Source of the DNA: Patescibacteria group bacterium
GTDB lineage: Bacteria > Patescibacteriota > Patescibacteriia > UBA9570
DNA: 64,000 nucleotides
Reading direction: 5' to 3'
Assembly: GCA_041660305.1 (NCBI GenBank)
Contig: JBAZWO010000002.1
Location: forward strand, 196,739-260,738
Shown: positions 57,990-62,421 of the stretch, one piece after another
How the letters are laid out: each line of letters starts with the position of its first letter
How positions within the stretch are numbered: position 1 is the stretch's first letter
The notes under the pieces: model-generated
The model's input: only the letters and a program-made list of their open reading frames with translations
The model's database searches: none
What the model was told of the DNA's origin: nothing
Made by a program: the position numbers and the translations under genes

Positions 57990-58607
57990 ATGAAAAAACT
58001 AAATTTGGCTTTACTAAGCTCTTCCCTTTACGTAGCATTTCAATTATTTGCTAATATTTTATCTACTAAAATCTGTTTATTACCTTTATTAAACTTAGCC
58101 GTAGATGGCGGGACAATTATTTATCCTTTTACCTTCACTTTGCGCGATTTTGTGCACAAAACCTGGGGCAAACATAGTGCCCGACAAGTAGTTATTATCG
58201 CTGGCTTATTAAACATAGTAATGGCCGTGCTGTTTTGGCTAATTGGCATTATGCCAGCCGATCCAACTTGGCTTAATCAAGACGCTTATAATGTAATATT
58301 AGCACCAGTTTGGCGCATTACGGTTGCTTCAGTAATTGCTCAAATTATTTCTGAATTAGTAGATACTGAAATTTTTAGTATAGCCTATAAAAAATTTGGC
58401 GATATGTTAGGTGTACTATTTTCCAATAGTATTTCGTTATTAATTGATAGCGTGTTGTTTAGCATTATTGCTTTTGCCGGTATGATGCCATTTAATATAG
58501 TATTACAAATCATTCTGACAAATATATTAATTAAACTAGTAATCAGTATTATTTCCGTACCGACTATAAAGTTATTACCACAACATGTCTCAACGAGTGA
58601 AATATAA
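57990..58607 (+). CDS. yhhQ: Queuosine-precursor transporter (YhhQ/DUF165, VUT family)
   Basis: GGTIIYPFTFTLRDFVHKTWGK, with 6 TM segments. Confidence 0.8.
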   Translation: MKKLNLALLSSSLYVAFQLFANILSTKICLLPLLNLAVDGGTIIYPFTFTLRDFVHKTWGKHSARQVVIIAGLLNIVMAVLFWLIGIMPADPTWLNQDAYNVILAPVWRITVASVIAQIISELVDTEIFSIAYKKFGDMLGVLFSNSISLLIDSVLFSIIAFAGMMPFNIVLQIILTNILIKLVISIISVPTIKLLPQHVSTSEI

Positions 58608-60312
58608 AAATAATTTACTGGCTTATGGATTAGTTTTATTATTCTGGTGTTTAGCTACTGGATCGATTATGAATGCGGCTATCACTTCTGATGAGCTACC
58701 ACATATTGCCGCTGGTTACTATTATTTAACCACTGGTCGTTACGCGCTTAATCCAGAACATCCACCGCTCATTAAAGATTTAGCGGCTTTACCATTATTA
58801 TTACTACACCCAGCTTCTCCTATTAATAGCAGTGCTTTCTCATTAACTGATGAAACTAATAATGAACAATGGAAATGGGGCGAGCTTTTTTTATTCAAAG
58901 CCAATCAACAAACCGACACGCTGGTTTTATTGGCCCGTTTAACTATTATTACTTTTAATACCGGTTTATTATTATGGTGTTATTTTTTAATTAAACAACA
59001 ATGGGATGCTAAAACCGCATTATTACTATTAGTGGCCGTAGTATTTAACCCATTTATATTAGCTCATAGCGCATTAGTAACCATGGATGTTCCGGCTACA
59101 TTATTACAAATAATTAGCTTATTATACGTTACCAGCTGGTTAAAACAATGTGCTGGAATTAGTTTAGTTATTACTAGTGTCACTTTGGCGATATTAACTA
59201 AATTTTCTGCGTTATTGCTTTTTCCGGTGATACTAGTTGGTTTAATATTTTATTTAATTTTTACTCGCTCAGCCAGACCAGCCTGGAAATATTATTTTAG
59301 CCGTTACATTTTTATTGTACTAGCTAGTTTGATTTTAGTAACCAGTGTATACGCCTGGCAAATCCGCCATACCACTACAGCTGACGTTTTAGCTCAGCTA
59401 CAAAGCAGTTATCCGTCAATTCTACCGACTTATGGTTTAACTATATTACAAACTCTAACTAATTTTTCTTTTGGGACGCGCAGCTTAGCTGAATTTATTT
59501 ACGGCAACATATTATTAGGCAGCCGTTTAGGCGTTGGTAATAATAGTACTTATTTTTTTAATCATGTCTATACAAATTTTCAAGTAAGTAACTGGTATTT
59601 TCCGGTGTTATTTTTCACAAAACTACCCTTAGTTTTGCTAGCCGGTCTGCTACTAAGCTTATTGGTTTGGCTACTAAAACTAAAAAAATCCATTACTGAA
59701 CCAGCTCAATTATTATTAAGTATTTATATTATTTTTTATAGTTTACTAGCTTTTACAACGCCTTTACAAATTGGCTTACGCCATATCATGCCAATAATTA
59801 TCATGTTAATTTTATTAATGGCAATAAACCTAATACGCTATTTTAGCACTAAACTTAGGCCATGCTGGAAAATAGTAGCTAAAACTGGCTTAGTTATTAG
59901 TTTAATTATTTTATCAATTAATCTAGCTTATAATTTTCCTTACTATTTAAGTTATTATAACTGGTTAGGTGGCGGCACTTGGCAGGGCTATAAAATTGCT
60001 ACCGATTCTAATTATGATTGGGGGCAAGATGTTAAACTCCTAGCTAATTGGACAAAAGAAAATAATATTACCACCCTTTATGTCGATGTATTTAGTACGG
60101 CCCCATTAGATTATTATCTTGGTTTTAAACCAATTATTTTTAATCCTAGTGATCCTTTACCATCAGCTGGCGCTTATATTGCCGTATCAGTGTTTCAATA
60201 CCAAAATAATGTTTATGATGAATATGTTCCTCCGGAAAAAAAATACACTAATTTACCATTAACCAAAATAACCCGCATCGGTACAACTATTTTTATTTTT
60301 CAAGTGAAATAA
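58585..60312 (+). CDS. GT-C fold (GT39/PMT_2/ArnT-like) polyprenyl-phosphate-dependent glycosyltransferase
   Basis: An N-terminal loop with SDELPHIAAGYYYLTTGRY, more than 10 TM segments and a soluble C-terminal domain. Confidence 0.7.
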   Translation: MSQRVKYKNNLLAYGLVLLFWCLATGSIMNAAITSDELPHIAAGYYYLTTGRYALNPEHPPLIKDLAALPLLLLHPASPINSSAFSLTDETNNEQWKWGELFLFKANQQTDTLVLLARLTIITFNTGLLLWCYFLIKQQWDAKTALLLLVAVVFNPFILAHSALVTMDVPATLLQIISLLYVTSWLKQCAGISLVITSVTLAILTKFSALLLFPVILVGLIFYLIFTRSARPAWKYYFSRYIFIVLASLILVTSVYAWQIRHTTTADVLAQLQSSYPSILPTYGLTILQTLTNFSFGTRSLAEFIYGNILLGSRLGVGNNSTYFFNHVYTNFQVSNWYFPVLFFTKLPLVLLAGLLLSLLVWLLKLKKSITEPAQLLLSIYIIFYSLLAFTTPLQIGLRHIMPIIIMLILLMAINLIRYFSTKLRPCWKIVAKTGLVISLIILSINLAYNFPYYLSYYNWLGGGTWQGYKIATDSNYDWGQDVKLLANWTKENNITTLYVDVFSTAPLDYYLGFKPIIFNPSDPLPSAGAYIAVSVFQYQNNVYDEYVPPEKKYTNLPLTKITRIGTTIFIFQVK

Positions 60313-60419
60313 TAACATTAAGCTATCTTTTTTTTCTAATATTCCGCATAATAAGTTAAGCACCAATTTTGGTGTTTTGCTCGTTAAAATTCTGTAAAAA
60401 GAAAAGAAGGGACAAGATC

Positions 60420-61223
60420 ATGAAAAAAATCGAGACACTTCTGGATCAGTTCGGAACCACAATGTCATATCGTCAACTCGTGGCGGAGTTGGAGGATGCA
60501 GACGAAACCACGCGAGCAACCGTGCTTGTGGCGGTTGCTCAAAAACAAGCCGACTTTTGGGCAGAGTCGGCCGAGTACTACCAGGAGGCGCACCCGCGTT
60601 TGCCTGGGATGAAGGCCCACAACAAGTGGGTCTTGAAAGCCGTTGACGCAATCCCTGGTGACCGTGTACTAGACATAGGGTGCGGGTGCGGTCGGTTCGC
60701 CCCGATGTTTCATCGGGGAATACAGTACATGGGAGTTGATCCCTCCGCTGCGATGTTCGAGATCGCACGAAGAGAGCATACTGGCGACAATATCCACTTC
60801 CTTCAGTGGCCAGATAATACGAAATTGCCGTTTGGGGACGGCTATTTCGACATTGTGCTTGCCAACTGGAGCATTGTGTATATGGAGCCCAACAAGCTCC
60901 AAGCCACACTCTTCGATCTCCGCCGGGTCATCCGGCCCGGCGGACGCTTCGTATTGACCGCCATTGTCGCCAACGCCCGTTGGGGGTGGCTGGCGACGGT
61001 CCGGTCCACCTTCTCCAACCCGCTCGAGACATGGCGTCAACGAGACGCTATTCGGCAGGCCATCCCCTTCGGAAGGTCTATCGGCCTGCTGTTCCCCTCC
61101 TACATGGAGTGGGAACTCGACGGACTTGTAACCCAAGCTGGGTTGCGAATCGTCGCGACCCAACATACCCTCTGGGGCCGCAGCTACGGTATAGTAGCAA
61201 AGCGGCTGTCACAGCCACCATAG
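60420..61223 (+). CDS. Class I SAM-dependent methyltransferase, high-GC (foreign composition)
   Basis: VLDIGCGCGRF (motif I), then GDGYFDIVLAN and RPGGRFVL. The ATG at 60420 is preceded by AAGAAGGGA. The ORF-track TTG start at 60369 is in AT-rich flank and is less likely. Confidence 0.85.
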   Translation: MKKIETLLDQFGTTMSYRQLVAELEDADETTRATVLVAVAQKQADFWAESAEYYQEAHPRLPGMKAHNKWVLKAVDAIPGDRVLDIGCGCGRFAPMFHRGIQYMGVDPSAAMFEIARREHTGDNIHFLQWPDNTKLPFGDGYFDIVLANWSIVYMEPNKLQATLFDLRRVIRPGGRFVLTAIVANARWGWLATVRSTFSNPLETWRQRDAIRQAIPFGRSIGLLFPSYMEWELDGLVTQAGLRIVATQHTLWGRSYGIVAKRLSQPP

Positions 61224-61240
61224 CACATTTTCTTTCCTAA

Positions 61241-61280
61241 GGGGCACCAGCGTTTCCACGCTTCCTACCGCCCCTTTTTT
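61241..61280 (+). terminator. Rho-independent terminator of the methyltransferase gene
   Basis: A two-tier stem: GGGGC...GCCCC encloses AGCGT-TTCC-ACGCT, and TTTTTT follows. Confidence 0.55.
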
Positions 61281-61293
61281 CATATCCAAATTC

Positions 61294-61530
61294 ATGGTAA
61301 CATACCACATTATGGAGGTAATCAATCTATTCTTACTTGCCTTAGCAAGTATCCTAGTTATTTTGGGTGTTATTATTATCGTCAAAAGTCGTGGCAATGT
61401 TAGCAATATCATTTTTGGATTTTTAAATCTGGTAGCCGCTACCTGGTCGTTTACCATCGCTCTATTTCGTCAAGCCGATACTTTATCATCGGCGTTACTA
61501 TGGGATCGGGCTATTTATTTATCAGGTTGA
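61294..61530 (+). pseudogene. Truncated N-terminal stub of a 7TM-type sensor (HisKA_7TM-like)
   Basis: 78 aa with two TM helices and ...NLVAATWSFTIALFRQADTLSSALLWDRAIYLSG, then a stop. There are no downstream kinase or output domains, and it abuts the 3' end of hicA. Confidence 0.45.
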
Positions 61531-61546
61531 GTAATTTAGGTTAATT

Positions 61547-61762
61547 TTAAATAAATAATTCTTTTGAAAGCTTTGATTGTTTTATAATAGCTAAAAACGT
61601 ACCAATTGGAATTGGTTTGTTTGAACCATGTAATGGCACGGGCACAATAATACCTAATGAGTTTCGATAAATACAATGACTGCCTTTTTGTCTTGCTAGA
61701 TAAAAACCATTACTTTCCAAAACTCGAATAACTTCCCTAACTTTTAGTGGCCGCATAAACAA
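61547..61762 (-). CDS. hicA: HicA mRNA-interferase toxin
   Basis: MRPLKVREVIRVLESNGFYLARQKGSHCIY. The likely ATG start is at 61756, overlapping hicB by about 20 nt. Confidence 0.85.
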   Translation of the reverse strand: MFMRPLKVREVIRVLESNGFYLARQKGSHCIYRNSLGIIVPVPLHGSNKPIPIGTFLAIIKQSKLSKELFI

Positions 61763-62030
61763 TTTCCGCTTGAGCCGGAAGTTTGGCCATAACTTCCGTT
61801 ATAATTGGATAAACTTTATTTTTATGAATAATTATAGATTCTCCTTCATGAGCTAATTCCTCTAACCATAATTGTAATACTTCCTGAGCTTTTGCTTTAG
61901 CTTCTTCAAAATCTCGCCCAAACGTAACACAACCAGGAAAATCCGGAAAAGAAACATTATAACCACCTTCTTCAATTGGATCAAACACGGCTGGATATTG
62001 TACTTTAGTTATTTGCTTCTTCATACTCAT
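61737..62030 (-). CDS. hicB: HicB-family antitoxin (short form, no obvious DNA-binding tail)
   Basis: YPAVFDPIEEGGYNVSFPDFPGCVTFGRDFEEAKAKAQEVLQLWLE (HicB/UPF0150 fold). Confidence 0.8.
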   Translation of the reverse strand: MSMKKQITKVQYPAVFDPIEEGGYNVSFPDFPGCVTFGRDFEEAKAKAQEVLQLWLEELAHEGESIIIHKNKVYPIITEVMAKLPAQAEIVYAATKS

Positions 62031-62067
62031 AAAAACTACCTTAAAATATGCGTATTGTCAATGTTAT

Positions 62068-62085
62068 GTCGGGGATACCAGATTT
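62068..62085 (-). repeat. 18-bp duplicate of the tRNA-Pro 3' end (att-like)
   Basis: GTCGGGGATACCAGATTT is identical to 62140-62157 inside tRNA-Pro. Confidence 0.85.
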
Positions 62086-62086
62086 T

Positions 62087-62114
62087 CCGCCAGAGGCGGA
62101 TCCGCCTCTGGCGG
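62087..62114. repeat. 28-bp perfect palindrome centred on GGATCC
   Basis: CCGCCAGAGGCGGATCCGCCTCTGGCGG equals its own reverse complement. Confidence 0.9.
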
Positions 62115-62137
62115 AGAACTGCCTAAATGTGCTTGAT

Positions 62138-62213
62138 TGGTCGGGGATACCAGATTTGAACTGGTGACCTCACGGTCCCGAACCGTGCGCGCTACCAACT
62201 GCGCTAATCCCCG
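62138..62213 (-). tRNA. tRNA-Pro (anticodon CGG), CCA encoded
   Basis: The reverse complement is CGGGGATTAGCGCAGTTGGTAGCGCGCACGGTTCGGGACCGTGAGGTCACCAGTTCAAATCTGGTATCCCCGACCA. It is a 76-nt cloverleaf with anticodon loop TTCGGGA. Confidence 0.9.
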
Positions 62214-62315
62214 CCTACGCTTTCGCTTCGCTACAGCTACGGCGGGCAAGCTCGCCCCGCTATGGCTTTAAAAAGAATAGCAAACATTACCCGGTTTAGA
62301 CAAGTATTTTAATAC

Positions 62316-62421
62316 TTGAATCACTGATTACACCCGCCTACCTCCTAAATCGGAGTACGGCGGGCAAGCAGATAAAATTTAATGATATTATCAGTATTTA
62401 TCAGAATTATCTGTGATTCAA
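62316..62421. repeat. Family-2 miniature element with TIRs, carrying a nested GC-rich hairpin
   Basis: TTGAATCACTGAT (62316-62328) pairs with ATCTGTGATTCAA (62409-62421), a 12 of 13 inverted match. In the right arm, 25 of 26 nt match 43960-43985. The left arm is interrupted by CCCGCC...GGCGGG (62333-62364). Confidence 0.75.

Follow-up and report, generated by a model that had tools for sequence, protein, structure and literature searches.

Tyrosine integrases reportedly use att sites that lie in tRNA genes, between the T-loop and the 3' end. The scars of such events have an exact block from the T-loop to the discriminator, present as a direct repeat downstream of an intact tRNA, and the sequence diverges immediately outside the block of identity. 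Genes within operons are also said to undergo xenologous displacement in situ, in which one gene of a conserved pair is foreign at the codon and amino-acid level and its neighbour remains native-like. Here we describe a 1.9-kb interval (positions 60313–62213) between a GT-C glycosyltransferase gene and a tRNA-Pro gene that combines features of both. It lies in the window, by which we mean the whole stretch of 64,000 nucleotides analysed from a Patescibacteria group bacterium (GCA_041660305.1, contig JBAZWO010000002.1). A first-pass annotation had read the interval as a decayed integration hotspot in which five unrelated pieces were left by successive tRNA-targeted insertions. All five (a methyltransferase gene, a sensor stub, hicB-hicA, an 18-bp repeat and a palindrome) are present, but they are not all unrelated, given that the methyltransferase and the stub correspond to a conserved pair in nine of nine loci. 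We consider the locus an ordinary patchwork or remnant beside tRNA-Pro and favour, with a probability of roughly 65%, a composite in which three parts each have a history of their own: the remnant of a cassette, hicBA and a 72-bp integration scar.

As the first-pass annotation had it, recombinase genes are missing: none was called from approximately 10 kb to the left to approximately 3 kb to the right of the locus in the Pfam annotation of the contig (L001), and neither the ORF list nor Pfam gave an integrase or recombinase ORF within 60313–62213. The tRNA was the sole match of the whole interval in phage and plasmid BLAST searches, and again in an Rfam scan, and a promoter and terminator consensus scan stayed at background level. 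The GT-C protein had no match among the genome contigs, not even in its own source genome. We found no close relative of that genome, and the best GT-C homologue (66% identity) lies on a 2.9-kb contig with a different gene order. The two nearest GT-C relatives, at 66% and 41% identity, lack synteny with the window as well as a tRNA in the vicinity, so no empty site can be demonstrated. Neither an ancestral state with an intact kinase nor a true empty site was seen, no close relative having been found; hence we infer the order and the mechanism of the events proposed below (displacement, deletion and loss of an element).

The first gene of the interval (60420–61223, + strand) is predicted to encode an intact class I SAM-dependent methyltransferase of 267 aa (Pfam Methyltransf_25, E=2.4e-18). 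It is foreign by composition, with a GC of 0.568 and a GC3 of 0.657 versus window means of 0.359 and 0.28 (56 ORFs of at least 150 aa), among which the next-highest real ORF reaches a GC of 0.432. The high GC content claimed earlier is thereby confirmed. The protein is rich in GARP residues (0.31) and has a K/R of 9/21, and a fine GC profile places the GC-rich patch at approximately 60470–61285 with both edges sharp. Full-length homologues form a small family only, at 21–36% identity and aligned over residues 4–263. The protein keeps the invariant family residues Q43, W47, Y54, P62, F225 and Y228 and includes the family-specific N- and C-terminal regions, as a full-length member does. The nearest fold matches of its AlphaFold model (pLDDT 90) are enzymes that methylate small molecules or lipids and not DNA, which points to a fold of the small-molecule class I type, and no DNA-methyltransferase family of Pfam or NCBIfam was matched. 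The dN/dS ratio could not be calculated, given that the three available copies are identical.

In all nine loci with a full-length homologue (L006, L007, L008, L009, L010, L014, L015, L020 and L022) a HisKA_7TM histidine kinase gene directly follows the methyltransferase gene on the same strand; for L022 the pairing rests on inspection of the sequence by eye. The two genes are separated by −4 to 112 nt in these loci, and the corresponding gap in the window is 70–88 nt. The cassette recurs in Patescibacteria, and the genes that flank it vary from locus to locus. No tRNA lies directly next to it in any of the nine loci, and the only one found at all is the tRNA-Lys of L007, located 2.3 kb upstream. 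Likewise, the nine loci hold no recombinase domain among the Pfam-annotated called genes, and hicBA was not called in any of them (at least 2 kb of flank was read in five). When the window is included, the methyltransferase alone is of foreign composition in two of ten loci, the window and L015. The literature on HisKA_7TM and on tRNA islands in Patescibacteria yielded nothing relevant to this pairing, which is undescribed and a small by-product of the analysis.

The sensor stub that follows the methyltransferase gene in the window is a 78-aa ORF (61294–61530, + strand), or 72 codons if counted from Met7 (61312–61530), and is the 5' remnant of such a kinase. It is colinear with residues 1–72 of seven partner kinases at 25–43% identity (E between 1e-7 and 4e-17 against a small database), four of which are complete with 542–740 aa. 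Pfam HisKA_7TM (PF16927) scores 20.3 bits over profile positions 3–63 of 224, which is below the gathering score of 28.6. The match takes in TM1, TM2 and the beginning of TM3 (two and a half helices of the 7TM input domain), the stub occupies the position that full-length kinases hold in the homologue loci, and it ends in the middle of TM3 where the partner kinases go on. In contrast to those kinases it keeps approximately 72 of 542–740 residues and would be unable to signal, because the HisKA and HATPase_c domains are missing; a downstream kinase with intact 7TM, HisKA and HATPase_c domains is absent here, and the HisKA or HATPase parts of such kinases were found nowhere else in the 64-kb window. 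A homologue search with the stub returned only itself and no small-protein homologue, using a word index that is insensitive for short transmembrane sequences, and it took the genes next to the methyltransferase homologues to reveal the relationship to the kinases. Given also that the partner kinases continue past residue 72, the stub is a pseudogene fragment of a truncated partner kinase and not a complete, conserved small protein. The first-pass annotation was right that it is truncated and ends against hicA: the two stop codons are 16 nt apart.

We propose that a two-gene signalling cassette, with a class I SAM methyltransferase gene first and a HisKA_7TM sensor histidine kinase gene second, was once resident at this position. 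The GC-rich methyltransferase would be a xenologue that had long evolved in a GC-rich genome, arrived with its own terminator and most probably replaced the resident copy in situ. The foreign gene beside a native-like neighbour is what the described cases of displacement have in common with this locus; the differences are that the partner gene would here have been destroyed later and that no donor or close homologue of the methyltransferase is known (best match 36% identical). A caveat is that displacing the methyltransferase alone needs illegitimate recombination at both gene borders. The resident kinase would have been cut to its first ~72 codons, which would leave the sensing pathway dead and the methyltransferase an orphan. 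In the simplest history, a single deletion from approximately codon 78 of the kinase to just past the hicA stop made the stub-hicA junction; it would have taken out at least 1.4–2 kb of the kinase gene together with any sequence on its far side. Because one deletion explains the junction, successive tRNA-targeted insertions are not needed for it. Alternatively, hicBA could have inserted and taken the kinase with it, instead of merely bounding the deletion.

The hicB-hicA genes form an intact, predicted type II toxin-antitoxin module, as annotated in the first pass. The hicB antitoxin gene (61737–62030, − strand) is of a short form with 95–97 aa (Pfam HicB_lk_antitox, PF15919, 47.6 bits over residues 12–67) and lies upstream of the hicA toxin gene (61547–61762, − strand; Pfam HicA_toxin, PF07927, 66.8 bits), for which Met3 is the likely start, giving 69 aa. 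The HMM searches that the first-pass annotation had suggested thus gave a HisKA_7TM match below threshold for the stub and clear matches for the other three ORFs, with both hic genes above their Pfam gathering score of 27. The two genes overlap by 26 nt, and hicA also matches the PHROG 353 toxin. HicA is close to the HicA of another locus (L013), to which both proteins align over their full length and with which the hicB-hicA order is shared, and relatives of the module at 58–68% identity occur in MAGs of Bdellovibrionales and Gammaproteobacteria, which belong to unrelated phyla; this supports the view that the module is horizontally mobile. It resembles described HicAB systems in its domains, its small, overlapping genes and the spread of close modules across phyla, but differs in that the antitoxin gene comes first and in that HicB is short, with no C-terminal DNA-binding domain (HTH or RHH) detected. 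Presumably HicA acts as an RNase toxin and HicB neutralises it, as in the family in general. The nearby palindrome was considered as a HicB operator, which is unlikely, and autoregulation through it is not expected because HicB has no detected DNA-binding domain.

At the right end of the interval, a tRNA-Pro(CGG) gene with encoded CCA (62138–62213, − strand) was called by ARAGORN and by Rfam (67.6 bits). Positions 57–74 of this tRNA (62140–62157) recur at 62068–62085 (− strand) as an exact 18-bp direct repeat, which reaches from the T-loop past the discriminator to one C and leaves out the remainder of CCA; outside this block the sequences diverge at once. Between the two copies lies a 54-bp segment (62086–62139) that contains a perfect 28-bp palindrome (62087–62114), unique in the window and with 0 matches expected by chance; as DNA the segment folds into a hairpin of −19.3 kcal/mol (z = −4.8). 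Repeat and palindrome are thus as the first-pass annotation described them. No other match to the 18-bp core in the same orientation exceeds 12/18 in the window, and the best direct-orientation candidate for an older copy to the left of the locus (11/18) is within that noise. An inverted 15/18 match in the stub ORF (61425–61442) was also considered as an old att site, but is probably due to chance because its orientation is wrong and it falls in a coding, hydrophobic stretch that is conserved in the homologues. Four metagenomic tRNA-Pro(CGG) loci have the same 3' end (L016–L019) and flanks that are not syntenic with the window; a second core was found in none of the three scanned downstream.

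The repeat looks like a real att-type scar of tRNA-targeted integration. The displaced core would presumably be the original tRNA 3' end, with hicB-hicA starting 37 nt downstream of it on the same strand and abutting the kinase break with its own 3' end. Integration may have duplicated the 18-bp block around the 54 bp, a presumed remnant of the integrated element, the rest of which would have been lost together with its integrase. Compared with described scars, the repeats here hold only 54 bp without any gene, an integrase is missing, and the accessory-looking genes lie outside. The reading as an integration hotspot is supported for the 72-bp scar only, and not for the methyltransferase, the stub and hicBA, none of which the core pair encloses. 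IMG/VR holds zero matches to the 18-bp core and zero to the palindrome, and hence no candidate attP donor. For an element, 54 bp is very small, and a different duplication mechanism could account for the scar.

The closest competitor of the composite reading keeps the whole 1.9 kb as a decayed stack of tRNA-Pro-targeted islands, in which the methyltransferase, the sensor fragment and hicBA were each element-borne and deletions removed the integrases and distal att sites. This account draws on the adjoining tRNA with its att-like repeat, on the foreign composition of the methyltransferase, on hicBA families that are known as phage morons and in distant phyla, and on the fact that older elements in tandem arrays do sit beyond the proximal displaced core. 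We nevertheless find it unlikely, given that the genes are outside the sole att pair, in what would be the chromosomal flank under the integration model, that no further core exists to the left, and that neither core nor palindrome occurs in IMG/VR. Moreover, the methyltransferase and the stub belong to one cassette that has neither an adjacent tRNA nor an annotated recombinase at nine other loci, and the stub, with a GC3 of 0.34, is native in composition. This last point also bears on a single transfer of the entire cassette from a GC-rich donor, with the AT-rich stub as an acquired kinase start or a recombinant with a resident kinase. The pair does travel together in all homologue loci, between different flanking genes, and so moves or reshuffles as a unit. 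However, GC3 drops from 0.66 to 0.34 over the 70-nt spacer between methyltransferase and stub, whereas the two genes are equal in L006, the nearest homologue locus (0.63 for the methyltransferase and 0.62 for the kinase). The best matches differ too, being L006 and L014 for the methyltransferase and the kinases of the AT-rich L014, L015 and L007 for the stub, and we rate a single transfer as somewhat less probable still than the stacked islands.

Far less weight goes to the two remaining explanations. The first-pass annotation had speculated that the methyltransferase and hicBA cooperate in defence or addiction, for example through a toxin triggered on loss of the methyltransferase's target modification. 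The genes are near each other and PADLOC reports a mad2 match for the methyltransferase (E=7.5e-18), but this match is restricted to the generic SAM-binding core (profile positions 265–410 of 492) and no defence family is matched over the full length. The methyltransferase and hicBA are convergent and more than 20 points apart in GC, the conserved neighbour is the kinase and hicBA was called in none of the homologue loci, and the sequence and fold matches are to small-molecule or lipid enzymes instead of DNA methyltransferases; cooperation is very improbable. We give even less credence to a chimeric misassembly or contamination that put a GC-rich gene into an AT-rich contig. The GC step is indeed extreme, with sharp borders, but both junctions are continuous in one NCBI MAG contig and in a pair of Logan assemblies made from separate runs, and the methyltransferase sits in the position and orientation expected for its family, directly upstream of the start of a 7TM kinase. 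The locus is not an assembly artefact, given that all three assemblies match the window there with 100% identity.

If the composite reading holds, a locus that resembles stacked tRNA-targeted insertions would mostly be a broken resident operon with a tiny integration scar, and an island should then not be read from a nearby tRNA and a GC anomaly alone. The pairing in nine of nine loci gives functional context to two families of "hypothetical" proteins and may help annotation of Patescibacteria, and the foreign methyltransferase in two of ten loci hints that the genes of this two-gene cassette are replaced one at a time in these reduced genomes. More tentatively, and in our view doubtful, the pair may constitute a signalling cassette, undescribed so far and with its centre in Patescibacteria, in which the methyltransferase makes or modifies a membrane-associated ligand or lipid sensed by the 7TM domain, the methyltransferase slot is repeatedly refilled by GC-rich xenologues (independently in the window and in L015), and the methyltransferase persists as a useful orphan after loss of the kinase.

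Several hairpins accompany these features. The tRNA is followed by an ordinary hairpin and T-run terminator in L016 and L018, and no comparable hairpin is visible in L017 and L019. In the window the palindrome would now form a hairpin that separates the tRNA from hicBA. Hairpins of a similar CCGCC..GGCGG type also occur upstream of the tRNA, so the palindrome may not come from the element; a 14-mer of the upstream hairpins gave at least 120 single matches in IMG/VR, which is the chance level and uninformative. Downstream of the methyltransferase gene, a GC-rich hairpin with a T-run behind it (61239–61280, + strand; RNA folding energy −16.3 kcal/mol, z = −2.6) resembles an intrinsic terminator. 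It marks the right border of the GC-rich patch, and similar hairpins lie between the methyltransferase and kinase genes in L014, L015 and L022.

The locus at 60313-62213, in an AT-rich window (GC 0.355), is best read as the decayed remains of a resident methyltransferase-kinase cassette, with a 72-bp integration scar and an intact hicBA module beside it, a result of gene loss and exchange that is nothing unusual in a reduced genome. All features listed in the first-pass annotation (methyltransferase, stub, hicA/hicB, tRNA-Pro, 18-bp repeat and palindrome) are present. At the DNA level, the locus is 100% identical in the window, in a contig of a Patescibacteria MAG (GCA_041664685.1, JBAYKG010000028) and in two Logan assemblies made from other runs. 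The two independent Logan contigs break off alike at position 62109 of the window, within a 28-bp palindrome and 9 nt beyond its centre, so they cover the locus only up to that point and are uninformative past the palindrome; the shared end is an assembly-graph break of the kind typical at palindromes. Given three identical assemblies and this explanation of the Logan ends, the interval is real sequence and not a chimera. In the closest relative by GT-C protein (Logan SRR22388322; 66% identity), the gene for a Vut_1 transporter is located downstream of the GT-C gene, opposite to the order in the window (57990-60312), where it lies upstream and overlaps the GT-C start; hence, local gene order is unconserved even in the nearest known relative.

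The class I SAM methyltransferase (60420-61223, 267 aa) had been noted for its high GC, and its composition marks it as foreign: at a GC of 0.568 and a GC3 of 0.657 it is an extreme outlier against the window's 56 ORFs with 150 aa or more (means of 0.359 and 0.28), the second-highest real ORF having a GC of 0.432. The GC-rich patch extends from approximately 60470 to 61285 and takes in a hairpin and T-run at 61239-61280 that looks like the gene's own terminator. The protein is rich in Gly, Ala, Arg and Pro (K/R = 9/21) and, given that nucleotide and amino-acid compositions are both skewed, the gene must have long evolved in a GC-rich genome. When 1.84 billion representative proteins were searched exhaustively and profile-free, only about a dozen full-length relatives emerged, at 21–36% identity; some carry the names Nealsonbacteria or Patescibacteria, and the remaining matches cover only the generic SAM-binding core. 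The AlphaFold model is confident (pLDDT 90), and the nearest proteins are phosphoethanolamine and phosphatidylethanolamine N-methyltransferases, natural-product methyltransferases and CmoA-like enzymes (TM-scores around 0.6). Family searches, PDB sequence matches and the model all group the predicted enzyme with class I methyltransferases that act on small molecules or lipids.

A HisKA_7TM histidine kinase gene lies directly downstream on the same strand in all nine loci examined with a methyltransferase relative, at gaps of -4 to 112 nt. The remaining neighbour genes vary between these loci, and no tRNA directly adjoins the cassette in any of the nine. Four partner kinases are complete (542–740 aa, with HisKA and HATPase_c domains, and additionally GAF in two), and most others are cut off by contig ends. 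In the window, the gene is followed by a 78-aa ORF (61294-61530) with a sub-threshold HisKA_7TM match. From Met7 on, this stub is colinear with residues 1-72 of the partner kinases (25–43% identity), with which it has a conserved W, FR and WDR-IY in common, and it ends in mid-TM3, exactly where the partner kinases run on. No free-standing small-protein homologue was found in the homologue search, and the 64-kb window contains no further piece of a kinase of this type. The stub is a pseudogene fragment, as the earlier description of a truncated sensor had it, and not the complete small protein that would have counted against that reading. The same evidence overturns the view of the pieces as unrelated: because a kinase follows in 9/9 loci and the stub is colinear with the kinase start, methyltransferase and stub are remains of one conserved cassette. 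The main by-product of the analysis is the finding that this methyltransferase family and HisKA_7TM kinases form a strictly conserved pair in Patescibacteria, which had previously gone unremarked.

Terminator-like hairpins and T-runs separate the two genes in the window (61239-61280) and in three relatives (L014:947-1025, L015:4496-4592 and L022:1049-1116), whereas in L007, L009 and L010 the genes overlap or abut instead, so the coupling of the pair is lineage-dependent. After the second-closest methyltransferase homologue (34–36% identity), the kinase gene is a 229-aa ORF with the 7TM domain only (L014:1026-1715) that stops 22 nt short of the contig end; a split gene, a truncation or an error in sequencing may each explain it.

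The compositional break falls inside the cassette, the stub having a native-like GC3 of 0.34 compared with 0.66 for the methyltransferase. At most homologue loci, the two genes resemble each other and their surroundings in composition. Read most economically, a GC-rich xenologue took the place of the resident methyltransferase gene, upstream of the kinase that was already there, and brought its terminator along. There is a second, independent case at L015:3641-4495 (GCA_041643155.1), where the methyltransferase alone is sharply bounded, Arg-rich (K/R 8/20) and GC-rich (about 0.50, with 0.33–0.40 on either side) while the adjoining HisKA_7TM kinase is of AT type; this suggests recurrent replacement of the methyltransferase within the cassette. 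No donor turned up, the nearest homologue of the window methyltransferase being only 36% identical. A possible tendency for xenologues to replace just the methyltransferase is a second by-product, and the weaker lead.

Both hicA and hicB give clear Pfam matches, overlap, are full length and have native-like GC; the stop codons of hicA and the stub are 16 nt apart, and 37 nt separate the hicB start from the displaced tRNA 3'-end copy. Relatives at 58–68% identity occur in one Bdellovibrionales and one Gammaproteobacteria MAG, and in the Gammaproteobacteria MAG hicB again precedes hicA, so the toxin-antitoxin pair is, as proposed, mobile on a long time scale. The simplest account of the kinase break at hicA is a single deletion, which would have begun near codon 78 of the kinase, ended shortly beyond hicA and created the stub-hicA junction. 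Alternatively, the arrival of hicBA may have coincided with the loss of the kinase, instead of hicBA merely bounding a deletion. The suggested methyltransferase-HicBA defence or addiction unit finds no support, given the small-molecule or lipid placement, a PADLOC mad2 match confined to the SAM-binding core, the convergent genes, their unlike composition and the conserved kinase partner.

The tRNA integration scar looks real. An exact 18-bp repeat (62068-62085 and 62140-62157) corresponds to positions 57-74 of the minus-strand tRNA-Pro(CGG) (62138-62213), that is, the last four T-loop bases, the T-stem and acceptor 3' strands, the discriminator and the first C, and similarity ends immediately outside it. 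Integrases that target the region from the T-loop to the 3' end of tRNA genes leave this pattern; the locus itself holds no integrase, as first noted. Under the integration model, DNA between the copies is element and DNA beyond the displaced copy is chromosome. The copies enclose only 54 bp, mostly a strong hairpin-forming perfect palindrome that is unique in the window (62087-62114), and no further core-like copy was found to the left of the displaced one. Being beyond that copy, hicBA, stub and methyltransferase would all be chromosomal flank on this model. The central picture of an accessory islet built by successive tRNA-targeted insertions is not supported. Among four metagenomic tRNA-Pro(CGG) genes with the same 3' end (L016-L019), none has the palindrome, and the three scanned downstream all lack a second core copy; the duplication therefore appears derived in the window genome. 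An ordinary hairpin and T-run terminator follows the tRNA in L016 and L018, and no such hairpin lies downstream in L017 and L019. Neither core nor palindrome was found in IMG/VR, so no donor element can be named.

The window's best inverted match to the core (15/18, the next being 13/18) lies inside the stub ORF at 61425-61442; as coding sequence in the wrong orientation for an att site of this tRNA, it is probably a chance match. Outside the GC-rich methyltransferase, all CCGCC..GGCGG hairpins in the 64-kb window cluster round tRNA-Pro (five matches, 0.3 expected), at 62211-62245 and 62334-62363 as well as at 62087-62114. The two upstream of the tRNA have the exact 14-mer TACGGCGGGCAAGC in common, 118 nt apart, and the proximal one pairs with the first tRNA bases; the upstream regions of the related tRNA-Pro loci are plain and AT-rich.
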